From the IMG/VR virus record IMGVR_UViG_3300045988_154294: a DNA stretch of 39,044 bases. One strand, given 5' to 3'. Source of the DNA: a virus. The notes below the pieces were generated by a model. The model was not told where the DNA came from, did no database searches, and saw only the letters and a list, made by a program, of their open reading frames with translations. This document shows, in pieces, positions 24,399 through 39,044 of the stretch (positions within the stretch are counted from its first letter, which is position 1; every line of letters begins with the position of its first letter). The position numbers and the translations under genes were made by a program.

Positions 24399-24421
24399 TA
24401 ATTGACACACTAATAGGAAGA
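24399..24421 (+). promoter_or_regulatory. Phage RNA polymerase promoter (phi-OL-like position)
   Basis: TAATTGACACACTAATAGGAAGA. It aligns with K11 AATTAGGGCACACTATAGGGAGA and T7 TAATACGACTCACTATAGGGAGA, with +1 predicted at G 24416. It lies 65 nt after the terminase gene. Confidence 0.6.
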
Positions 24422-24669: not shown

Positions 24670-25989
24670 TTGAAAGGTAGTGTTACTAAAGTGTTATCAG
24701 TAAGAACTTTTGCAAACCGTATAGGTGTTACTGAAGCGACAATAAGGACAAAACTCAAAAGTATGTCAAACTTAAGGAAAGACCAAAGCGGACGTTACAT
24801 TCTAAGTGAAGAAATCTATTCACAATTCCTTTACAAATTTTATACTAGATTATATGCTAAAGATAGCCATAGTAAAGTGTTTGTCCAACAGAAAGGACAC
24901 ACAATGCTAAGTAAAGGAAAAATCAATAAAGTTACCAAAAAATCTAATGGTAAGACCTATTATTACTTGTCACAATTCCCGATAGGGTATGATGTCAATG
25001 GAGAAGTAATATATAGGAACTCTAAAGGACTACCATCAAGAGCTGAATGTGAAGCACTGAGACAACAATGGATAACTGAAAGGGAAGCACCAAAGTACAA
25101 CCCTATGTCATTCTATAATTACTGTAAGAACCTCTATGAGAATGACAAGACACTAGCTGAATCCACTAAATACTTTCACTTAAAGGTTATCAATAAGCAC
25201 CTCAAAGACTACTTCTCAGATGTCCCTTATAATGAGATAACCTCAAAGATACTCAATGACTACACTGAGCACCACTTAAAGAGTAGCATATGGGGAGTAC
25301 GAGTGGTTATTACTAAGGCACTTCATGAGTTGTACCGAACGGAAGTCATTGAGCGAGACCTAAGCCAACTAGTGAAATATCCAAAGGAACACCACAGAGC
25401 GAAAAAGAAACCTTTGTCTAGTCAAAATGTCAAACTGGTATTTCAGTATTTCAAATGGCACAGACTGGAGCACGCAATACAACTTCTATTTAAGACTGGT
25501 GTTCGTGCTGGTGAGCTACTGGCGCTCCATTGGGATGACATTGAGCTACTTGATGATAACCTCATAGTTACTCATGTGTCTAAATCCATTGCAATCACTG
25601 ATGCAGGGTACATCGTGAAAGAGCCTAAGAATAGGAGTAGCATTCGAGAGGTCTACACGTATGACGAGGAGCTATGGCAACTCTTAAAGACAGCCAAAGA
25701 CAACTCAAAGACCAAATGGGTAGTACCTAACAGAAGCAATACGTCATACTTGCAGTACAACAGTTTGACCCGCTTCATGAGAGAGGCTGGAGAGACCATT
25801 GGACTCCCTGAGAGACTAACTCCTCACGTTGCAAGACATACTTATATATCTTCATGTCTTCACAAGGGTATCAATGCTGAGTATATAGCCCCTCAAGTAG
25901 GACATACAGATACCACAATGATATATAAGGTATATGGTAAAGCTACTGAAAAGATTAAAGACATATTCAAAAATGTGTCAAACTATTAG
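24670..25989 (+). CDS. int: Tyrosine recombinase / integrase
   Basis: 439 aa. GVRAGELLALHWDDIE is box I with the Arg; HVARHTY is H-x-x-R; VGHTDTTMIYKVYG carries the His and Tyr. A helix-turn-helix-like N-terminal arm is present (RIGVTEATIRTKL). Start is non-ATG: TTG 24670 or GTG 24691; the first in-frame ATG is at 24763 and has no RBS. Confidence 0.85.
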   Translation: MKGSVTKVLSVRTFANRIGVTEATIRTKLKSMSNLRKDQSGRYILSEEIYSQFLYKFYTRLYAKDSHSKVFVQQKGHTMLSKGKINKVTKKSNGKTYYYLSQFPIGYDVNGEVIYRNSKGLPSRAECEALRQQWITEREAPKYNPMSFYNYCKNLYENDKTLAESTKYFHLKVINKHLKDYFSDVPYNEITSKILNDYTEHHLKSSIWGVRVVITKALHELYRTEVIERDLSQLVKYPKEHHRAKKKPLSSQNVKLVFQYFKWHRLEHAIQLLFKTGVRAGELLALHWDDIELLDDNLIVTHVSKSIAITDAGYIVKEPKNRSSIREVYTYDEELWQLLKTAKDNSKTKWVVPNRSNTSYLQYNSLTRFMREAGETIGLPERLTPHVARHTYISSCLHKGINAEYIAPQVGHTDTTMIYKVYGKATEKIKDIFKNVSNY

Positions 25990-26087
25990 TCAAACTCATG
26001 TAACAAGACTAGCAACCATCAGGAATGCATGGTAAAATACATAAAAACTTGACGAATGGTTCAGGAATCACTGGTTTAGCCATTAGT

Positions 26088-26115: not shown

Positions 26116-26529
26116 TACAGTTGGACAAACACTAGATATGGCAAAAGGTAAAAATTGGTAAAAATTTGTGAGCCCATATGTATCCTTTAGAAATTTCTCA
26201 TGTCCCCCATAGGGCTGTCTCAAAGCTCATCATATCAATTCACTACTCTTGTTCTCCTATCTTATTATTCAATTTATAACGTAGGTGAGTGGGACGTTTC
26301 ATGTCCAGCTAAAGGCAGTCGATACCAGCGTTACTCCCTAGGATAACCATTAGCTAATTCATCAGCACAACTAAAGTCTAACTCATAGTATTATCTCAAA
26401 ACAACAATACACATCAACACAGTATAACGTATGGTCTAACATACAGTAATATCTAAAGTCTTACTCAAGACTAACAACAGTATCTCAATCTATTAAACAA
26501 AGGGAATACCTTCCCTTAAACCCTTGTAT

Positions 26530-26593
26530 CTTTTGATAACCAATGGTTTAAACTAAAGATTATTCACATATTTAAACCATTGGTTATCAAAAG
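26530..26593. repeat. 23-bp perfect inverted repeat with an 18-bp spacer
   Basis: CTTTTGATAACCAATGGTTTAAA, then ctaaagattattcacata, then TTTAAACCATTGGTTATCAAAAG. Confidence 0.9.
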
Positions 26594-26598
26594 ACCGT

Positions 26599-26773
26599 CC
26601 ACCAGTGACCAATAGACAACATAGAGCAACTAAGGTATAAAACCTCTAAAAGAATACTGGTGTATCATAGAAGTATAACCAGTGGTGCACATAGAGACAA
26701 CCAATAGACAAGACACAAGTAATCGAGGTGGATAACTCAAGAAATCAATAGACCATAAAGGGAATACCTCAAG
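26599..26773. repeat. Iteron/arm-site-like direct repeats
   Basis: CCAATAGACAA occurs at about 26608 and 26701, and a variant (TCAATAGACCA) at 26747. CCAGTG...CATAGAG occurs twice (26602, 26680). AAAGGGAATACCT occurs at 26500 and 26757. Confidence 0.7.
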
Positions 26774-26846: not shown

Positions 26847-27011
26847 ATGAGCAATACAGAAGTCTACATAGTAGCAGGAATATTTTACGCCTTTATGACT
26901 GGCATTGTGATGGACGCTATGCGAAAACGGGACAGTGATACATTACTAGTCATTGGAACACTATGGGTCTTCATCAGTTGTTTGTTTGGATATCAAGTGT
27001 TTTTCAAATAG
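26847..27011 (+). CDS. Small two-TM membrane protein
   Basis: ORF 26781..27011 trimmed to ATG 26847 after an AAAGGGGGT box. 54 aa with two hydrophobic helices. Confidence 0.45.
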   Translation: MSNTEVYIVAGIFYAFMTGIVMDAMRKRDSDTLLVIGTLWVFISCLFGYQVFFK

Positions 27012-27020
27012 GTAAAACAA

Positions 27021-27072
27021 AAGACCTCAAGGGTTTGACTTATTGTCTCACTCTTGAGGTCTTTTATGTCTT
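27021..27072. terminator. Bidirectional terminator between convergent genes
   Basis: AAGACCTCAAG...CTTGAGGTCTT is an 11-bp perfect stem with T-runs on both strands. It lies between the + gene ending at 27011 and the - gene ending at 27072. Confidence 0.55.
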
Positions 27073-27296
27073 TATTCTTTTGTAAATTCGTATCGGATAT
27101 TGAAAGGTTGAAGAATCTTATTGAGTGTCTTCAGTGTTTTACATCTGGCAACCCTTTTTGAAATTTCAACCCCTAAATCGGCAAACTCTCCAATGTCTGA
27201 AAGATACTCTATGCAGTCACTTTCAGAACACGAAATTAATTTCAATTCGGTGAACTCCTCACCACTTTCGTATCCTTTTATAATAGTTACTTTCAT
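27072..27296 (-). CDS. Hypothetical small acidic protein, third gene of the minus-strand cassette
   Basis: 74-aa ORF whose start lies 10 nt after the upstream gene's stop. Confidence 0.5.
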   Translation of the reverse strand: MKVTIIKGYESGEEFTELKLISCSESDCIEYLSDIGEFADLGVEISKRVARCKTLKTLNKILQPFNIRYEFTKE

Positions 27297-27305
27297 GGTC
27301 TAACC

Positions 27306-27842
27306 TCAGCAATCAAGCGGCAACTTTAGAATATTTACAACGTCTTCAGAGGATAATGGGTCACCTGTAAAGGTCATGAGAAATCCATTCAGAATTTTCA
27401 AGTATGTAACTGTCTCATCGTTGTACTTAATAAAACAAGCATAATCAACAAGAATATCATTTTTATGATAGAAGATAACCCGATGTAATTCATCAAGTGT
27501 CTTTTTTGTGAGACAACCGAGAACGTCTTCTAAATCGCTCTTGACCTCATCAACAAAAGAACTAGGGAATTCGTCCGCTTCAGTCCCTTGATACAACTTT
27601 TCAGAACTATCAATTTCGACTGAGTACCAACTGAAACCAATCGCTTTATTTAATTCTACTATTGTTTCACAGTCTGAGAACCATTCTTTTAATTCTTCCT
27701 GTGTCTGTTCGGTGTCTTCAGATAACCAATTGATGATATAGTCATCTAACATTACCTTTACTAACTCAGCTTCCGTATCAGCATAGTAATTGTAAAAATG
27801 AATTATTCCATCATTATTTTCACGCACTGTATACTTTCTCAT
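27306..27842 (-). CDS. Hypothetical strongly acidic protein, second gene of the minus-strand cassette
   Basis: 178 aa with roughly 35 Asp/Glu against 14 Lys/Arg. A GGAG box (AAAAGGAGAACAAGACC) precedes the ATG. It has its own consensus σ70 promoter. Confidence 0.55.
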   Translation of the reverse strand: MRKYTVRENNDGIIHFYNYYADTEAELVKVMLDDYIINWLSEDTEQTQEELKEWFSDCETIVELNKAIGFSWYSVEIDSSEKLYQGTEADEFPSSFVDEVKSDLEDVLGCLTKKTLDELHRVIFYHKNDILVDYACFIKYNDETVTYLKILNGFLMTFTGDPLSSEDVVNILKLPLDC

Positions 27843-27905
27843 GGTCTTGTTCTCCTTTTGTGTTAAATATTTTTGGGTCTTAAGATAACCCCTATCTTTA
27901 CTTGT

Positions 27906-27934
27906 ATTATACTATGGTACACACCAAAAGTCAA
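27906..27934 (-). promoter_or_regulatory. Near-consensus σ70 promoter on the minus strand, for the 178-aa gene
   Basis: Minus strand reads TTGACT, the 17-nt spacer tttggtgtgtaccatag, then TATAAT. It starts 9 nt after the RHH stop codon. Confidence 0.55.
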
Positions 27935-27942
27935 CACCTGAA

Positions 27943-28140
27943 TTAGTCTTTTTTATGAAACCCAATAGTTTTTTCTATCATCAGCTCCTTTACTAATTCG
28001 GAAACCGTTACGCCCTGCCGCTGAGCTACTTTTTTAAAGTCATTATGTAACTCAGTCGGCAACTTGATATTTAGTCGCCCATCACTATTTAATGACCTGT
28101 AATAATAAACGTTTTTTTGATTCATGTTGTTGTCTTTCAT
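27943..28140 (-). CDS. Ribbon-helix-helix (CopG/Arc/MetJ-type) DNA-binding protein
   Basis: 65 aa. RLNIKLPTELHNDFKKVAQRQGVTVSELVKELMIEK is a beta strand, helix A, G-x-T-x-S-E, then helix B. A GGAG box (AAGGAGAGGACACC) precedes the ATG. Confidence 0.6.
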   Translation of the reverse strand: MKDNNMNQKNVYYYRSLNSDGRLNIKLPTELHNDFKKVAQRQGVTVSELVKELMIEKTIGFHKKD

Positions 28141-28186
28141 GGTGTCCTCTCCTTATCTATACATATAATAGTATTTATATACTTAT

Positions 28187-28220
28187 ATTATATCATGGTA
28201 AATATAAAAAGGGAATACAA
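28187..28220 (-). promoter_or_regulatory. Extended -10 promoter on the minus strand, for the RHH gene
   Basis: Minus strand reads ...tttaccaTGaTATAATataag, which is TGnTATAAT. The -35 is weak (TTCCCT at 17 nt, or TTGTAT at 22 nt). Confidence 0.4.
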
Positions 28221-28239
28221 AAAATATGTAAAAAAGGGA

Positions 28240-28268
28240 TTGACATTAGGTACATACCATGCTATACT
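28240..28268 (+). promoter_or_regulatory. Near-consensus σ70 promoter for the rightward early genes
   Basis: TTGACA, the 17-nt spacer ttaggtacataccatgc, then TATACT. It lies about 45 bp from the divergent RHH promoter. Confidence 0.6.
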
Positions 28269-28357
28269 TAAACCATAGAGAGGGGCAGTACGATAAAGCC
28301 CCAAAAAATTTTAAACTCTTGGTACATACCAATAGTAAAGAAAAGGGGTACAGACAC

Positions 28358-28573
28358 ATGAGAAAGATTACAACTAAAAGAACAATTAGAAACTACCAAG
28401 CGAAAGACGTTTCAAACTTAACTTTTTTACAGTTTAAAAACTTGAGCCATAAAAAATATATGGACGTTGTTTATTACTCACGAAATGCTGAAAAAATTAC
28501 AGGTGTTGTATTCTTGATGGACGGCATCGTATATAAAGCAATTGATACTAAAATAGTCGCAATGGTCTTATAA
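28358..28573 (+). CDS. Hypothetical small basic protein
   Basis: ORF 28259..28573 trimmed to ATG 28358, which follows an AAAAGGGGT box and lies downstream of the 28240 promoter. 71 aa. Confidence 0.45.
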   Translation: MRKITTKRTIRNYQAKDVSNLTFLQFKNLSHKKYMDVVYYSRNAEKITGVVFLMDGIVYKAIDTKIVAMVL

Positions 28574-28588
28574 GAAGGGGAACTAAAA

Positions 28589-28810
28589 ATGTTATGTTTC
28601 AAAATGTCATATAAAGAAATAAAAAGGGAAGACGCTATAGATATTACAAATATGACACCTGAAGAATTCAAAGAATTAAAAAGTGGGCAACATATAACAG
28701 TAATATGCAAGGCTAAGACTAGTTATGAAACAACTGCTATTCTGTTTGAAATGAATAATATGTATTACAAGTGTTTACATAATGAAGCCCTTATAAATGT
28801 AATTTATTAA
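28589..28810 (+). CDS. Hypothetical protein
   Basis: 73-aa ORF with a GGAG box (AAGAAGGGGAACTAAAA) before the ATG. Confidence 0.45.
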   Translation: MLCFKMSYKEIKREDAIDITNMTPEEFKELKSGQHITVICKAKTSYETTAILFEMNNMYYKCLHNEALINVIY

Positions 28811-28833
28811 GTTAATCAAAGGAGAACAAGACC

Positions 28834-29223
28834 ATGAGAAAAATTAAGTGCTTTTATAAATACAATGAATACGCAACTTTCATCGTGTCCCCTGAAGCCC
28901 GCAACCCATATCATATAAATTGCATTGGGACACTTCAGGATATAACACAACGTTATGACATGCCATCATGTTGGGGCGTAGATGATATAGTGGGGTACTT
29001 AGAGACGTTAGACCTCTATTTATATCGTTGTATATATGAGGTGTCTCACGTTAATCAGGGCGTGATAATGCGGGGAGACATAGAAAGCTCAATTATTGAT
29101 GAAATTGCAAAGGTCTTTAAGTATGAAGACGTATGTATTGATTTTACTGACATTGATACGGTGGCTGAAAGTATCAACTGTCAGAGCGATTATGAAGTAA
29201 AAAAGGAACGTGAGAGAATATGA
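28834..29223 (+). CDS. Hypothetical Cys-containing protein
   Basis: 129-aa ORF with a GGAG box (AAAGGAGAACAAGACC) before the ATG. That leader is the same as the one before the RNA polymerase gene and the 178-aa gene. Confidence 0.5.
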   Translation: MRKIKCFYKYNEYATFIVSPEARNPYHINCIGTLQDITQRYDMPSCWGVDDIVGYLETLDLYLYRCIYEVSHVNQGVIMRGDIESSIIDEIAKVFKYEDVCIDFTDIDTVAESINCQSDYEVKKERERI

Positions 29224-29333
29224 AATACTTTGATGAGGTCTTTAGCATAACTGCACATATAGCCGCCATTGCCATGTGCATGTACTTCATAGCAACGTTT
29301 GTAAATGAGGTAGGGCACGCACTGGTCCGCTAA
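29220..29333 (+). CDS. Possible 37-aa hydrophobic peptide
   Basis: MKYFDEVFSITAHIAAIAMCMYFIATFVNEVGHALVR. Its ATGA overlaps the upstream stop and an AAGGAACG box precedes it. Below the size cutoff of the ORF track. Confidence 0.3.
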   Translation: MKYFDEVFSITAHIAAIAMCMYFIATFVNEVGHALVR

Positions 29334-29335
29334 AT

Positions 29336-29465
29336 CGAACAAATAGAGGGACTTAAGAGTACGAATTGAGTACCCTCTATTTTTTATACCCAAAATGTGA
29401 ACAAATGTACTATTATACACCTCATTTGTTCTATTTAATAGATGTTATTTAGTACAAATGTTCGA
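29336..29465. promoter_or_regulatory. Array of GAACAAAT(G) half-site repeats, possibly operators, with a candidate -10 element
   Basis: GAACAAATA 29336, GAACAAATG 29399, inverted CATTTGTTC 29423 (a 9-bp perfect inverted repeat with a 15-bp spacer), GTACAAATGTTC 29452, and a TATAAT at about 29466. Confidence 0.4.
29343..29386 (+). terminator. Terminator-like hairpin with T-tract upstream of the RNA polymerase gene
   Basis: ATAGAGGG...CCCTCTAT forms an 8-bp stem with a 22-nt loop, followed by TTTTTTA. Confidence 0.45.
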
Positions 29466-29616
29466 TATAATGAGACGGTAAATTGGTTTGTTCCTCAGCC
29501 TCAAAAGGCGGCAAATTGACCGCTTGAGACACCTCAGGGGTTATCTATCGGACAACCAACAGAAAAGCCCTTATACGGCGAAAAGTGACCTAGTTTTAGT
29601 AAAGGAGAACAAGACC

Positions 29617-32178
29617 ATGAGTAACACTTTAGAAGACCAAATTAGCCTTGAAAGACAGTACAAGGAATACGCAAAAGAGCTATTCATTAAACGCCATGAG
29701 ACGGAACAAGAGAAGGGGCGAGCGTCTCAAACTCAAGTAGGCAAGGGGCTACTTAATTATGTCAGTGAGAGCCTAGCAACAGCAATTGATGAGTGGCTCA
29801 CTGATGAGCTTAAGCCTAGGCGGGGCGTGCAAAAGACCTATAAGAAGCTATTACAGGCAATCGTTGACGCCGTAGGACATGATGAAGTTGTCTTGAATGC
29901 TTGCGCTTATACGTTTGAGAACGTCATCAATGCAGTTATTAAGGGCAACAAACACTATATAACCGCCTCAAGTATTGCGAGTGAAATAGGTATAGCCCTC
30001 TTTTATGAGTGCAAGTTGTCCGCTTTTATGTCTCAGCTTACAACGTACCATCAAAAGAGCGTTATTGAAGAAGAGCTCAAAAAGCGAAACCTTCTGAGGT
30101 ACAAATGGAATTATATTAAAGAGGTTACCAATGATGAGCAATATGAGTTTTTCAAGCCAACTCATGAGCAACTAAATTGTTTAGGGATGGAGCTCTTAAA
30201 TATCTTTATTGATGTTACAGGGCTGGCTGAGTATAGCAAGGAAGACGCAAAGTCAATTCATGTTATCGCTTCAGATACCCTAGTTTCAATATGGAGAGAA
30301 AATATTGACAACGTAAGTACAAAAGTGAATATGTTTGTCCCTACCATCATACCACCAAAAAAATGGGCTTCCCTTAATGAGGGCGCATATTATGACGTTG
30401 CAAGCTATCACGCTATTTTTATGAGGCTTGACTGGACAACGCAACGCTCACGCACAGGGCGCAACTATTTACGAAAATTGGCTGAGGTGGATTTGTCTCA
30501 GGTCTTCAGCGCCGTAAACGCTATACAAGAGACCGCCTACACGATTAATGAAAAGGTCTTAACGGCGGTTAACTACCTAGTTTCAAAAGGTGGAAACCGT
30601 GCTGGAATTGAGAAGTTAGAGCCCATTGAGTTGCCTCATGAGCTAACAGGGGACTACACAGAGGAAGACCTGAAGCGTCATAAAGAGCTTATCAAAGAGT
30701 TAAGGGCTCAGGAACTATCACGAGTATCAAAGGCTTTACGAGTGTATAAGACCGTTAACTTTGCAAAGGACTTCTCAAAGTACGAAAAGATATACTTCCC
30801 ATGCAATATTGATTTTCGAGGGCGTATCTATCCAATTCCATTTTTCAACTTTCAGGGAGATGACCTCATGAAGTCCCTTTTGTTATATGCTGAGCCTGTC
30901 CCTTGCAGTCATGAGGAAGACTTCAGAACCCTACAGGTTCAAGGGTCAAACCTATGGGGCAACGATAAAATCGGCTATGCGAAACAATGTGAATGGGTAG
31001 AGGAGAACACACAGAGAATCCTCTTAACCGCTGAAGACTACCTAGTGTCAGACTGGTGGGAACAGGCAGATGAACCATTGCAATTCCTAGCGTTCTGTTA
31101 TGAGTATGCTGAGTGTCTTAAATACAAAGAGGCACACGGCGGTAGTATCATTGGCTACATGTGCAGAATACCTATAGCTTTTGATGGTACGTGTAGTGGT
31201 CTTCAGCACTATAGCGCTATGCTTCTTGACCCTATTGGTGGCAATGCAGTAAATCTCACGAGCGGACATGAGAAGCCTGAGGATATTTACCAGCAAGTTG
31301 CCGATGGTGTTATTAAACTTGTTGAACAAGACGCCCTCACAGGTACGATTGATGAGACAAAAATTGCAAAAAACAAGTATAAATCAAAAGAAGATGACCC
31401 TGAGGAAGTTGAACTGACAGTATCAGGTACACGTACACTTGCCCAGGCGTGGCTGGCTCATGGTATTACCCGCAAGGTATGCAAAAGACCAGTAATGACA
31501 CTTGCCTATGGTAGCGGTGAGTATGGATTTAGTGAACAGCTATTTGAAGACATCGTACGCAACAGTCCACACTTTAAAGGAATAGCAAGACCAGCAAGTA
31601 AGTACCTAGCGAAACAAATAGCTAAAGTTGTGAAGGATGTTGTTGTCTCAGCCGTTACAGGAATGGCGTTCTTGAAAAAATTAGCTATAAAGATGAATGA
31701 GGCTGACATTGCTGTTAGCTGGTGGACGCCTTTAGGTTTACCAGTCCAACAAAACTATTTGTCTATCGAGAAGAAATACGTTCAAACACGCCTAGGAGCT
31801 CAAAAGCGTGTACGTATTTATTGGGATGAGCCTACAGAAAAAGAAGCAGTCGATAAGAACCATCAGCGAAACGGTGTAGCCCCTAATTTTATTCATAGTT
31901 TGGACAGCACACATCTCATGATGGTAGTAAACGAGGCTGGTCTTAATAACTACACAACGATACATGACAGCTTTGGTACTTCCCTAGGTGAGACCCTAGT
32001 TTTAAAACGTGTATTGCGTGAACAGCTCTATAAGCTATACACAGAGTACAAGCCATTGGAGAGCTTCAAAGAATATGTTGAACAAGAACTTGATACAGAA
32101 CTACCTGACATTGAGATACCAAAGAAGGGGACTCTTGATTTAAGTGAAATTCTTATGTCTGAATATGTGTTCCACTAA
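29617..32178 (+). CDS. Single-subunit DNA-dependent RNA polymerase, T7 gp1-like
   Basis: ORF 29488..32178 trimmed to ATG 29617 after an AAAGGAGAAC box, giving 853 aa. FDGTCSGLQHYSAMLLD, LAYGSGEYGF, NFIHSLDSTHL and IHDSFGT are shared with T7 RNA polymerase, and the C-terminal F-H/A is similar. Confidence 0.95.
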   Translation: MSNTLEDQISLERQYKEYAKELFIKRHETEQEKGRASQTQVGKGLLNYVSESLATAIDEWLTDELKPRRGVQKTYKKLLQAIVDAVGHDEVVLNACAYTFENVINAVIKGNKHYITASSIASEIGIALFYECKLSAFMSQLTTYHQKSVIEEELKKRNLLRYKWNYIKEVTNDEQYEFFKPTHEQLNCLGMELLNIFIDVTGLAEYSKEDAKSIHVIASDTLVSIWRENIDNVSTKVNMFVPTIIPPKKWASLNEGAYYDVASYHAIFMRLDWTTQRSRTGRNYLRKLAEVDLSQVFSAVNAIQETAYTINEKVLTAVNYLVSKGGNRAGIEKLEPIELPHELTGDYTEEDLKRHKELIKELRAQELSRVSKALRVYKTVNFAKDFSKYEKIYFPCNIDFRGRIYPIPFFNFQGDDLMKSLLLYAEPVPCSHEEDFRTLQVQGSNLWGNDKIGYAKQCEWVEENTQRILLTAEDYLVSDWWEQADEPLQFLAFCYEYAECLKYKEAHGGSIIGYMCRIPIAFDGTCSGLQHYSAMLLDPIGGNAVNLTSGHEKPEDIYQQVADGVIKLVEQDALTGTIDETKIAKNKYKSKEDDPEEVELTVSGTRTLAQAWLAHGITRKVCKRPVMTLAYGSGEYGFSEQLFEDIVRNSPHFKGIARPASKYLAKQIAKVVKDVVVSAVTGMAFLKKLAIKMNEADIAVSWWTPLGLPVQQNYLSIEKKYVQTRLGAQKRVRIYWDEPTEKEAVDKNHQRNGVAPNFIHSLDSTHLMMVVNEAGLNNYTTIHDSFGTSLGETLVLKRVLREQLYKLYTEYKPLESFKEYVEQELDTELPDIEIPKKGTLDLSEILMSEYVFH

Positions 32179-32198: not shown

Positions 32199-32221
32199 TA
32201 ATTGGCACACTAACAGGAAAG
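32199..32221 (+). promoter_or_regulatory. Phage RNA polymerase promoter (phi-1.1-like position, just after the RNA polymerase gene)
   Basis: TAATTGGCACACTAACAGGAAAG. It matches the 24399 copy at 20 of 23 positions and has the same AATTTTAATTG upstream context. Confidence 0.65.
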
Positions 32222-33287: not shown

Positions 33288-33310
33288 CTAAATGACACAC
33301 GAATAGAATT
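33288..33310 (+). promoter_or_regulatory. Candidate phage RNA polymerase promoter
   Basis: TAAATGACACACGAATAGAATT matches the 24399 promoter at 17 of 22 positions. It lies about 55 nt upstream of the gene at 33365. Confidence 0.45.
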
Positions 33311-37428: not shown

Positions 37429-39044
37429 ATGGAAGAATCAACCTTAATTAAGGCACATTTGCCTTGCCAAACTTGTGGTAGTCACGATGCACTCTCAGAG
37501 TATTCTGACGGACATACCCATTGTTTTTCTTGTGGTACAACAAAATTTTTAAACAATGACAAAAGACAAATAAGCAACTCAGTATTTACCAGTAGGGTAT
37601 CGTCAACCCATATCAGTAATTTACCAAAACGAGGTATTTTAGAGCATACATGCAAGAAATACCAGTACCAAAAAGGAACATACAATGGAAAGCCGGTACA
37701 AGTCGCAAACTATTATGACCAGTATGGTGAACTTACAGGGCAAAAGTTGAGGTTTGCCGACAAGACTTTTTGTGTGTTAGGAAGCATTAACGATACGTTT
37801 TACGGACAACAGCTGTATAGTGGTGGAGACCAATTGATAGTCACAGAGGGCGAGATTGACTGTTTAACGGTATCACAAATGTTCGCCAATACTATCCCAG
37901 TAGTAAGCCTACCAAAGGGCGCTAAGAGCGCAAGAAGGACATTTGAAAGTAATCTTGAATGGCTACAACACTTTAATGAAGTTGTGGTTATCTTTGACAA
38001 TGATGAAGCCGGAAGGGAAGCAGTCAAGAGTGTAGAGGGCATTCTTGAAGCTGACAGATTGAAAGTAGTGGTCTTAAATCAGCACAAAGACCCAAATGAG
38101 TACCTACTGGCAGACCACGGTAGGGAACTCATGGACGCCATTAGTAATGCTAAGGCGTATACCCCTGAGAACATTGTCAACGGTAGTACATTGTGGGAAG
38201 AACTGAAGAATGAACCTGAAGAAGAAGTTGGATATAGCTTACCGTGGGACATAAAAGCACAAGATATGACCAAAGGAATACGCAAGGGGGAAATCGTGTT
38301 ACTAACCGCCGGAACTGGCATTGGTAAATCAACCATGGCAAGAGAAATCATGTATGACCTTGCTATGAATAAAAACTTAAAAGTAGGCGTTATGATGCTA
38401 GAGGAAAACATAAGGCGCACCGCCAAAGGTATTATGAGTATACATGTTGGTAAACCTCTACACATATCACGTCAAGGACTTACTGAAGATGAATACAAGA
38501 CCGCATTTGATGAGACCCTAGGAACAGGGCGTTTTGTCTTGTATAACCATTTTGGTAGTCTAGCAGAAAACAAAATATTGAGTGCAATGAGGTACATGGC
38601 TGTTACTGAAAAGTGTGACTTTTTGGTATTAGACCATTTGAGCATTGCAGTGAGTGGAATAGACACCAAGGACGAGCGAAAACTCATAGACGTGCTTATG
38701 ACACGTTTACGTTCGTTAGTTGAGGAAACTGGAGTAGGTCTCATAGCCATATGTCACTTGAAACGCACAGACAATAGCAATCATGAAGAAGGTGGCGTCA
38801 TCAGTTTGAATCATTTACGAGGTAGTCAATCACTGGCTCAACTTTCAGATACCATTATTGCACTTGAGAGAAATCAACAAGCCACTGAAGACAAAGAAAA
38901 GAATCGCATTAAGGTACGCATACTGAAATGTAGGTGTACTGGTGATACTGGTCTAGGTGGCTATCTTTATTTTGACAAAGGTATTAATCGCTTACGAGTA
39001 CCTGATTTTGATGAGGAGAACACCAATGAAGACACAAAGCAACA
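37429..39044 (+). CDS. DNA primase/helicase, T7 gp4-like (3' end continues at 56..65 across the circular junction)
   Basis: N-terminal zinc ribbon CQTCGSHD...HCFSCG; primase motifs VTEGEIDCLTV and FDNDEAGREAV; Walker A GTGIGKST; VLDHLSI; ICHLKR; the C-terminus SDTIIALERNQQ...ILKCRCTGDTGLGGY is nearly identical to T7 gp4. Confidence 0.95.
   Translation, partial: MEESTLIKAHLPCQTCGSHDALSEYSDGHTHCFSCGTTKFLNNDKRQISNSVFTSRVSSTHISNLPKRGILEHTCKKYQYQKGTYNGKPVQVANYYDQYGELTGQKLRFADKTFCVLGSINDTFYGQQLYSGGDQLIVTEGEIDCLTVSQMFANTIPVVSLPKGAKSARRTFESNLEWLQHFNEVVVIFDNDEAGREAVKSVEGILEADRLKVVVLNQHKDPNEYLLADHGRELMDAISNAKAYTPENIVNGSTLWEELKNEPEEEVGYSLPWDIKAQDMTKGIRKGEIVLLTAGTGIGKSTMAREIMYDLAMNKNLKVGVMMLEENIRRTAKGIMSIHVGKPLHISRQGLTEDEYKTAFDETLGTGRFVLYNHFGSLAENKILSAMRYMAVTEKCDFLVLDHLSIAVSGIDTKDERKLIDVLMTRLRSLVEETGVGLIAICHLKRTDNSNHEEGGVISLNHLRGSQSLAQLSDTIIALERNQQATEDKEKNRIKVRILKCRCTGDTGLGGYLYFDKGINRLRVPDFDEENTNEDTKQ
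38990..39044. repeat. 55-bp terminal overlap with 1..55 (assembler k-mer overlap marking a circular contig)
   Basis: The last 55 nt of the window are an exact copy of the first 55 nt. Both lie inside the primase/helicase CDS. Confidence 0.9.

Follow-up and report, generated by a model that had tools for sequence, protein, structure and literature searches.

A ribbon-helix-helix gene between divergent early promoters as a candidate immunity region of a temperate T7-like Veillonella phage

This study concerns a minus-strand gene cassette in a viral DNA of 39,044 nucleotides (IMG/VR record IMGVR_UViG_3300045988_154294). The whole analyzed stretch is called the window. The first 55 bases of the window are the same as its last 55 bases, which indicates a circular assembly of about 38,989 bp. 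The cassette holds three genes, for a 65-amino-acid (aa) ribbon-helix-helix (RHH) protein, a 178-aa protein (p178) and a 74-aa protein (p74). The three genes had been proposed in a preliminary description of the sequence, and they are real: the three open reading frames (ORFs) are present, and independent gene callers call them on every related contig. The remaining real genes are all on the plus strand, and GC and AT skew invert at 27-28 kb. Minus-strand ORFs at 37800-38750 (37.8-38.7 kb) were rejected as spurious, since they lie inside the primase-helicase gene. Three cassette types are distinguished below. Type A is the window, type B comprises contigs L014, L098 and L102, and type C comprises L099, L104 and L108.

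The promoters of the cassette were verified. The leftward TTGACT-17-TATAAT (P_int) and the rightward TTGACA-17-TATACT (P_R), both named in the preliminary description, are the two best promoter matches in the region. When sigma-70 sites of the form TTGACA-N17-TATAAT were searched with at least 11 of 12 matches, only P_int and P_R were found in 39 kb (0.49 expected). The two promoters flank the RHH gene, and both fit the longer pattern TTGACN-TTN-GGTNNNNACC-ATNN-TATANT (0.01 expected). The RHH gene has its own promoter, P_L, with the extended -10 TGATATAAT that had also been described. This -10 precedes the RHH start codon by 47 nt and is separated by 45 bp from the rightward -35. It is the sole perfect extended -10 nonamer (TGNTATAAT) in the genome, which by itself is not beyond chance. 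The TG and the -10 are kept in the variant L014 as TGTTATAAT. The bidirectional terminator expected at the end of the cassette was recovered by folding. It folds strongly on the minus strand (-26.6 kcal/mol, z -6.2) and on the plus strand (-32.4 kcal/mol, z -7.9), with U-tracts on both strands. RNA folding revealed no terminator between the RHH gene and p178 (z -0.9).

Exactly three copies of the 10-bp pseudo-palindrome GGTRCRYACC are present in 39 kb (0.26 expected), all of them within 27916-28330 (Table 1). A scan with one mismatch adds only a site in the terminase gene and none near the integrase gene (int) or the RNA polymerase gene. A degenerate operator-like sequence, TATATTTACC, is present in the P_L spacer. 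The P_int and P_R modules align as inverted paralogues, each with a -35, an operator, a -10, a short conserved stretch, a GC hairpin, an A-run and a T-run. The leader hairpins (28282-28312, and 27860-27890 on the minus strand) have a GC stem of 4-5 bp and then A5-6 T3-4. Across the four modules aligned from the window and L099, the stem sequences vary but pair in every case, with compensatory changes. The leader hairpin may be a 5' mRNA stabilizer or a pause element. Two early promoters with operators thus enclose the RHH gene together with its weaker promoter, which is the geometry of the lambda immunity region. The divergent early promoters flanking the putative repressor gene share one operator, and covariation among relatives, described below, suggests that this operator is bound by the RHH protein.

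Table 1 Features of the cassette and its surroundings in the window.
Feature	Position	Strand	Basis or remark
Tyrosine integrase, 408 aa as called on related contigs	24763..25989	+	Pfam Phage_integrase, E 8.8e-18
attP core ATGGTAAAATACATA, 15 bp	26029..26043		identical 15-mer at attL, attR and attB
Hydrophobic two-segment protein gene, 54 aa, converging on the cassette	26847..27011	+	called on related contigs; GRAVY 0.85
Two-way intrinsic terminator, common to the 54-aa gene and the cassette	27019..27065		RNA folding
p74, 74 aa	27072..27296	-	
p178, 178 aa; N-domain 1-~95, C-domain ~98-176	27306..27842	-	
Leftward early promoter P_int, TTGACT-17-TATAAT	27906..27934	-	11/12 match
Operator O_L GGTACACACC in P_int spacer	27916..27925		exact GGTRCRYACC
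RHH protein, 65 aa, proposed repressor	27943..28140	-	Pfam RHH_5, PHROG
RHH promoter P_L, extended -10 TGATATAAT (28195..28187), weak -35 TTCCCT (28215..28210)	28187..28215	-	
Rightward early promoter P_R, TTGACA-17-(TGc)TATACT	28240..28268	+	
Operator O_R1 GGTACATACC in P_R spacer	28249..28258		exact GGTRCRYACC
5' leader stem-loop GGGGC-N11-GCCCC, then A6T4	28282..28312	+	
Operator O_R2 GGTACATACC within TTGGTACATACCAA	28321..28330		72 bp downstream of O_R1
Early operon: e71 (28358-28573), e73 (28589-28810), e129 (28834-29223), e37 (29220-29333)	28358..29333	+	
Terminator at the end of the early operon, before the RNA polymerase gene	29345..29385	+	-18.4 kcal/mol, z -5.2, then U-tract

The assignment of the 65-aa protein to the RHH class was upheld by family matches. 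Pfam RHH_5 was matched above its curated cut-off (E 1.5e-7, 31.5 bits against a cut-off of 26, residues 22-54), nine weaker RHH families were matched as well, and the PHROGs label is Arc-like repressor. The L099 counterpart also has an above-threshold family match (RHH_9). The pattern read by eye, with GRLNIKLP, TELHNDFKKVAQRQG, VT and VSELVKELMIEK, fits the RHH dimer fold, in which an N-terminal beta-strand precedes helix A, a G-x-S/T turn and helix B, and the dimer places a two-stranded sheet in the major groove. Sequence matches in the PDB (ParG, Arc and ORF56) were non-significant. According to Pfam, the 65 aa hold the RHH domain only, and a LexA/S24-type self-cleavage domain is absent. 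Neither the precomputed annotations nor Pfam scans of the proteins of unknown function revealed another DNA-binding regulator. The MarR family was likewise unmatched, both in the scanned proteins and in the Pfam annotations precomputed for the prophage genes.

Weak sub-threshold matches of the RHH protein to the CopG_antitoxin, HicB, ParG, BrnA and RelB models would be in line with a type II toxin-antitoxin or a plasmid-type addiction or partition module, in which the RHH protein serves as an antitoxin or as a CopG/ParG-like factor. All of these matches, however, are well under the curated cut-offs, and we regard such a module as extremely unlikely. Between the RHH gene and p178 is a gap of 100 bp that holds a strong promoter, and p178 is highly acidic with no match to a toxin family or fold. 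No recognizable toxin gene adjoins the RHH gene in one operon, and the partner varies or is absent in relatives: L014 keeps the RHH gene without p178, and in L104 the next gene is another RHH gene. The plasmid-type control module suggested in the preliminary description is not supported either, as rep/par genes were not found and the element integrates.

The single-subunit RNA polymerase gene is at 29617-32178 on the plus strand, and its product is ~33% identical to the enzymes of T7-like phages over 99-100% of the length. The Pfam families RNA_pol, Helic-prim_T7_N, Phage_endo_I, Phage_T7_tail and Terminase-T7 follow one another in T7 order on the plus strand. With a single-subunit RNA polymerase and the T7-type gene order on one strand, the phage is T7-like; the term is used broadly herein (Autographiviridae sensu lato), on gene content and order. 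When the window was compared by megablast with 50,697 phage records, no nucleotide match was found, and tblastn of RHH and p178 against the same records also gave no match. Similarly, a pattern scan of the GTDB representative genomes found no relatives of the RNA polymerase. No tRNA genes and no Rfam elements were found in the window.

The sequence AATTGRCACACTAAYAGGAA has copies at 24400-24419 and 32200-32219, on the plus strand only (0.01 expected). One lies just after the RNA polymerase gene and the other between the terminase and integrase genes, and a weaker third site is near 33290. These sites look like phage RNA polymerase promoters, and the integrase may be transcribed by the phage polymerase. 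Because the phage-promoter-like 20-mers lie on the plus strand only, the minus-strand cassette would depend on the host RNA polymerase.

By exact look-up, the same proteins were located in bacterial scaffolds (120-650 kb) of human assemblies, most of them from the infant gut. The GyrA that adjoins attL shares 98% identity with its counterpart in Veillonella sp. KGMB01456, and on this sequence basis the host is assigned to Veillonella. Veillonella is an abundant bacterium of the human gut and mouth, a member of the Bacillota with a double membrane.

Integration was mapped to the base pair. The core of attP was located in attL of L014 at ~3158 and in attR of L003 at ~13400. An empty attB core is present in the Veillonella metagenome-assembled genome L020 at ~5634, and the flanks change exactly at the core. 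This uninfected genome holds a single core, with the attL-type flank on its left and the attR-type flank on its right, ~170 bp downstream of gyrA. The similarity between prophage and window ends at window position 26029, and for one prophage within one scaffold the core-to-core distance is 38,993 bp. The integrase gene comes after the terminase gene and adjoins attR in prophages. The cassette is identical across six integrated or tandem copies. The window is thus a true temperate phage, because it has an integrase, mapped attP, attL and attR sites and an empty attB downstream of gyrA. In L007, L016 and L017 (scaffolds of 215-307 kb), the terminase-int-attP-cassette-RNA polymerase junction lies inside the bacterial scaffold, and one large scaffold holds two terminase copies with ~39 kb between them. 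The int-attP-cassette junctions in large scaffolds indicate tandem prophages or excised circles collapsed into the assembly.

Natural variants of the cassette were then compared. The flanks of L014 (type B) are 95-99% identical to the window, and its RHH ORF is only 69% identical. Between the type A and L014 RHH alleles, pN is 0.175 and pS is saturated, so the RHH gene is under purifying selection. The type B RHH gene is an old allele that was recombined into a near-identical prophage. The RHH beta-strand reads RLHIKL in L014 versus RLNIKL in the window, and the L014 operators have GGTG in place of GGTA in three of the four copies. O_L in L014 is GGTGCACACC, a single change in an otherwise 91%-identical segment.

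Type C is more distant, as the L104 RNA polymerase is ~71% identical to that of the window. The RHH protein at the equivalent position matches Pfam RHH_9 (25.4 bits, cut-off 23.4). In L099 and L108, each of the three promoters (P_int, P_R and that of the RHH gene) has the perfect palindrome TGTCATGACA in its spacer, and another copy follows 73 bp downstream of P_R. The RHH promoter of L099 thus carries the full palindrome in its spacer, compared with the degenerate site in the window. The sequence GTCATGAC has four copies in L099, all inside ~400 bp. In L104, TGTCATGACA is at the RHH promoter, at P_R and at the downstream site, and P_int has a different palindrome; the downstream copy is 73 bp away, as in L099. 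These comparisons provide the main argument that the RHH protein binds the palindromes, because the architecture remains constant while the regulator and its site change together. The lysis/lysogeny switch envisaged in the preliminary description is strengthened in this way, as the operator sequence differs where relatives carry another RHH type; the integrase, the mapped att sites, the many integrated copies and the operators at the early promoters also speak for it. The preliminary description contained neither the integrase with its att sites nor the operators, and it did not recognize P_int as a paralogue of P_R.

At 100-500 of L104, two RHH genes stand in tandem in the leftward cassette, first a type C gene and then a window-type gene, and the contig ends there. 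The second gene is behind a promoter, TTGACA-TGTGTATACATGCATAT-TATGCC, with a different palindrome. The tandem RHH genes could provide double immunity.

The region upstream of the RNA polymerase gene behaves differently from the operators. TCGAACA/GAACAAATG repeats in both orientations occupy 29334-29470, between the early terminator and the RNA polymerase gene. It had been asked whether the RHH protein binds the GAACAAATG repeats. Such binding was rejected by inference, as the repeats are conserved in all relatives whatever the RHH type, including those with a different RHH and a different operator. Near the repeats is a TATAAT that varies among relatives, with GATACAAAT in L103 and GATGTAAT in L104, and the -35 is a poor one. 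The upstream region may be an activator-dependent promoter or another control element. Control of this gene by host LexA was also considered and rejected; the best Cheo-box-like site (29451-29464) has two mismatches and is no better than chance.

The rightward early operon begins with a 71-aa gene (ATG at 28358), not with a 104-aa ORF whose start falls inside the promoter. The e71 protein is identical in L014, and the e71 family is kept in all relatives. A metagenome scan with the e71 family found two further loci only. No Pfam, PADLOC or NCBIfam family was matched by e71, e73 or e129. The terminator that closes the operon is conserved in relatives. As pure speculation, the conserved basic e71 is a candidate for binding the TCGAACA repeats.

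Taken together, it seems probable that the cassette and its divergent promoters are the immunity and early-control region of a temperate T7-like Veillonella prophage, with a lambda cI-like layout based on an RHH protein. In this mechanism, the RHH protein would be made from its own weak extended -10 promoter (28195..28187), and its oligomers would bind the 10-bp pseudo-palindrome GGTRCRYACC. One operator would act between the -35 and the -10 of each strong host-polymerase promoter, and the third 72 bp downstream of P_R. P_R would drive transcription of the small early genes in the direction of the phage RNA polymerase gene, and P_int would drive p178 and p74, the exchangeable accessory proteins of the leftward early operon. 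Occupancy by the RHH protein would block the host RNA polymerase and silence both early operons, and the early silence would keep the phage RNA polymerase gene off. The latter effect must be indirect, because no RHH operator is present at that gene. The degenerate site in the RHH promoter would give weak autoregulation. The RHH protein is presumably expressed in lysogens.

Several points weigh against this mechanism. The RNA polymerase gene is behind a terminator and has its own upstream region with no RHH operator, and given the terminator and the absent operator, it cannot be shown that the RHH protein alone silences this key lytic gene. The RHH protein lacks a domain for cleavage or sensing, and neither an antirepressor nor a Cro-like partner was identified. 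The spacing between O_R1 and O_R2 is 72-73 bp in types A and C and ~65 bp in type B, so a looping geometry is not strictly conserved. The covariation of operators between type A and type B comprises seven sites only. Phage RHH regulators can also be shut-off factors of the lytic cycle, as is the case for Arc.

The RHH protein might accordingly be an Arc- or Cro-like lytic regulator, made early, that damps both early promoters after the phage RNA polymerase has taken over; lysogeny would then be kept by a host factor, by the elements upstream of the RNA polymerase gene or by an unrecognized protein. The PHROG matches to Arc-like repressors, the location of the operators in early promoters, the conserved RNA polymerase upstream repeats that do not follow the RHH type and the lack of an induction-sensing domain are all consistent with such a role. 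The RHH gene, however, has its own promoter of a different build, outside the early operons, and its product is the sole recognizable regulator of a phage for which integration is demonstrated. An exchange of the kind seen here, in which near-identical prophages have taken up an ancient RHH allele, would be expected of an immunity determinant. A purely lytic role is therefore considered unlikely, and the immunity-region mechanism is retained.

The two other proteins of the cassette were analyzed for their composition, domains and relatives. Both had been described as acidic. This holds for p178 (pI 4.2, net charge -22), which is strongly acidic, and does not hold to the same degree for p74, which is only mildly so (pI 5.2, net charge -2.5). 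Between type A and type B prophages, p74 differs by 0-2 nt. A search of 5.8 billion proteins for homologues of p178 and p74 returned near-identical copies only. When HMMER was run over 1.8 billion representatives, the relatives of p178 were single-domain proteins from the same phage group only, and one repetitive match of 1380 aa was judged spurious. An IMG/VR pattern scan found no homologue of either protein, and in these searches neither has relatives beyond the present phage group. No significant match of p178 or p74 was found in Pfam, PHROG, NCBIfam (none above cut-off) or PADLOC.

These sequence comparisons show p178 to be a fusion of two small domains. The N-domain exists as a separate 104-aa gene (P0006) among the rightward early genes of L098, and the C-domain is a gene of its own (P0005, 86 aa) immediately behind the RHH gene in L099 and L108. 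The whole p178 gene is absent from type B (L014, L098 and L102), where p74 directly follows the leftward promoter. In the leftward slot, L108 has an extra, unrelated 88-aa gene and L104 has the second, window-type RHH gene. Since the p178 domains are split, lost or replaced by other genes in relatives, the leftward operon resembles a variable slot that takes up small proteins, most of them acidic.

A 24-nt block at translation starts, AAAGGAGAACAAGACCATGAGAAA, heads p178 (27835-27858, minus strand) and is identical at e129 (28818-28841, plus strand); it recurs with one mismatch at the RNA polymerase gene (29601-29624, plus strand). A further site is at 27293-27301, and in L014 the block heads p74 and e71 too. 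The ends of the p178 deletion fall on the repeated TCATGGTCT core of the block. The start blocks may be recombination joints for gene shuffling.

Structure prediction and search had been suggested for the two proteins. AlphaFold gave a confident model of the p178 N-domain (residues 1-80, pLDDT 79-94), with a beta-hairpin, three helices and a strand, and a poor one of the C-domain. The p74 model is mediocre; its predicted beta-beta/alpha-alpha-alpha/beta arrangement has the same topology as the p178 N-domain. Foldseek searches of the PDB and BFVD gave no match at E <= 0.001 for p74 or p178, and the p178 result covers the N-domain only. GIY-YIG-like topology matches were weak, and on inspection they lacked the catalytic motifs and were rejected. 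The motif C-x-T-[LI]-x-x-L-N-K-[IA] is shared by p74 and the p178 N-domain (BLASTP E 0.05, hhalign E 0.019); these statistics are weak and are suggestive of a distant paralogy.

The acidity of p178 raises the question of an Ocr-type DNA mimic that blocks restriction or BREX early in infection, as the preliminary description had offered. In addition to the net charge, p178 has a strong host-polymerase promoter upstream, and the N-domain homologue of L098 is in the early slot just before the RNA polymerase gene. In T7, gene 0.3 has about the same position. In the p178 model, however, the confident part is predicted to be mixed alpha/beta, a beta-hairpin with helices, and not all-helical. It has no significant Foldseek match in the PDB or BFVD, and the 50,697 phage records hold no sequence relative of p178. 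An Ocr-type mimic is therefore quite unlikely. A generic anti-defense or early role of the acidic proteins is possible.

The position of p178 and p74 also bears on when they are made. The shared operator and leader suggest that they are co-regulated with the early genes, and the most likely time of their synthesis is directly after infection or induction. As the RHH gene and p178 have no terminator between them, read-through from the RHH promoter may also give low-level expression in lysogens. This read-through opens another explanation, in which p178 and p74 are conversion or exclusion genes expressed in lysogens like lambda rexAB, co-transcribed with the RHH gene and protecting the host from other phages. 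The cassette is at the prophage end, adjoining attL, and its content varies among close relatives, which is typical of accessory "moron" genes. As P_int shares its operator and leader with P_R, the main expression should nevertheless cease when the early genes are shut off; in L098, the N-domain homologue lies inside the rightward early operon, and no PADLOC or Pfam defense match was found. The conversion-gene explanation is doubtful, and we retain p178 and p74 as accessory proteins of the leftward early operon.

A broader evolutionary picture is put forward tentatively. A T7-like lineage integrates site-specifically in Veillonella; its minimal 65-aa RHH protein may keep the lysogens silent by clamping the only two strong host-polymerase promoters of the genome, and the polymerase gene may be silenced only indirectly, via the early-gene cascade. 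Immunity types may evolve by swaps of RHH gene and operators together, and the leftward slot may shuffle small acidic proteins at conserved ribosome-binding-site and start blocks.

Two further elements lie between attP and the cassette. The 54-aa gene is conserved in L099 and disrupted in L108; it shares the cassette terminator and sits at the prophage end. This position suggests a membrane-acting exclusion, holin-like or small-toxin role for the 54-aa protein. Between attP and this gene is a gene-free stretch of ~800 bp, the core of which is strongly conserved in the distant relative L099. A long hairpin folds at 26490-26700 (-32 kcal/mol, z -9) without a U-tract, and it contains a perfect 24-bp inverted repeat (26529-26552 / 26571-26594); ACATAGAG..CAAC direct repeats follow. 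Its pairing is kept in L099 via several compensatory changes. The Rfam search of the long inverted repeat returned junk miRNA matches only. The hairpin might act as a structured RNA, as an origin or as a palindrome bound by a protein.

The proposed region was compared with known control systems. As in the lambda immunity region, the repressor gene is read leftward from its own weaker promoter, between two strong divergent early promoters that share an operator. There are early-left and early-right operons, accessory genes follow the repressor gene, and hetero-immune alleles are exchanged between otherwise near-identical prophages. The two systems differ in the regulator, which is a 65-aa RHH protein here and a two-domain helix-turn-helix repressor with a RecA-sensitive domain in lambda. 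They also differ in the operators, a single 10-bp site per promoter spacer here versus three tandem 17-bp sites in lambda. No Cro analogue was identified here, and unlike in lambda, a phage RNA polymerase with its gene behind a terminator runs the lytic program. The immI region of P22 (Mnt and Arc) is similar in its small RHH repressors and its divergent P_mnt/P_ant promoters overlapped by operators. P22 immI controls the antirepressor and is secondary to the c2 repressor. In the present phage, in contrast, neither an Ant homologue nor a second repressor was found.

Among temperate T7-like phages, LUZ100 and related Pseudomonas prophages have a MarR-like regulator that is co-transcribed with the integrase and was proposed to decide between lysis and lysogeny (PMC10134795). 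In that model, which is hypothetical, MarR acts at sites flanking the RNA polymerase gene promoter, and stable lysogens were not obtained in that study (PMC10134795). The present phage is similar in having a T7-like genome with an integrase and, before the RNA polymerase gene, a small regulator. It differs in that the regulator is an RHH protein on the opposite strand, the integrase is on the far side of attP, the operators are in host-type early promoters and not at the polymerase gene, and the integration is documented. A MarR module with a regulator co-transcribed with the integrase is not present, as attP and the opposite strand separate the integrase from the regulator. The F55 protein of the archaeal fusellovirus SSV1 is an RHH repressor of the carrier state that binds repeated sites of ~11 nt in early promoters and in its own promoter, and its release involves the host RadA (PMC9608457). 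F55 and the present protein are alike as RHH proteins of roughly 55-65 aa serving as the main maintenance repressor, a role that is proposed here. They are unrelated in sequence, the promoters of F55 are those of an archaeal virus and host, and a RadA-type release is known for F55 only. The present system would not be a MarR module, a toxin-antitoxin system or a member of the Ocr family, and it resembles the lambda immunity region combined with RHH repressors of the P22 immI and SSV1 F55 kind. The proposed RHH-based switch differs from the same-strand MarR type proposed for the described temperate T7-like phages, and it belongs to a phage lineage and a host group for which no close relative has been described.

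T7-like phages are the textbook example of strictly lytic phages. Some of them were recently proposed to be temperate, with stable lysogeny and its control being ambiguous (PMC10134795). Herein, the integration of a T7-like phage is documented at base-pair resolution by attP, attL, attR and an empty attB. The candidate switch consists of one 65-aa protein, three promoters and three 10-bp sites, and the dormancy of a T7-like phage would thus become directly testable. Three natural immunity types are available for cross-comparison, and they offer compact, orthogonal repressor-operator pairs for Veillonella genetics. The cassette also draws attention to a shufflable family of acidic early proteins, which may act against host defenses.

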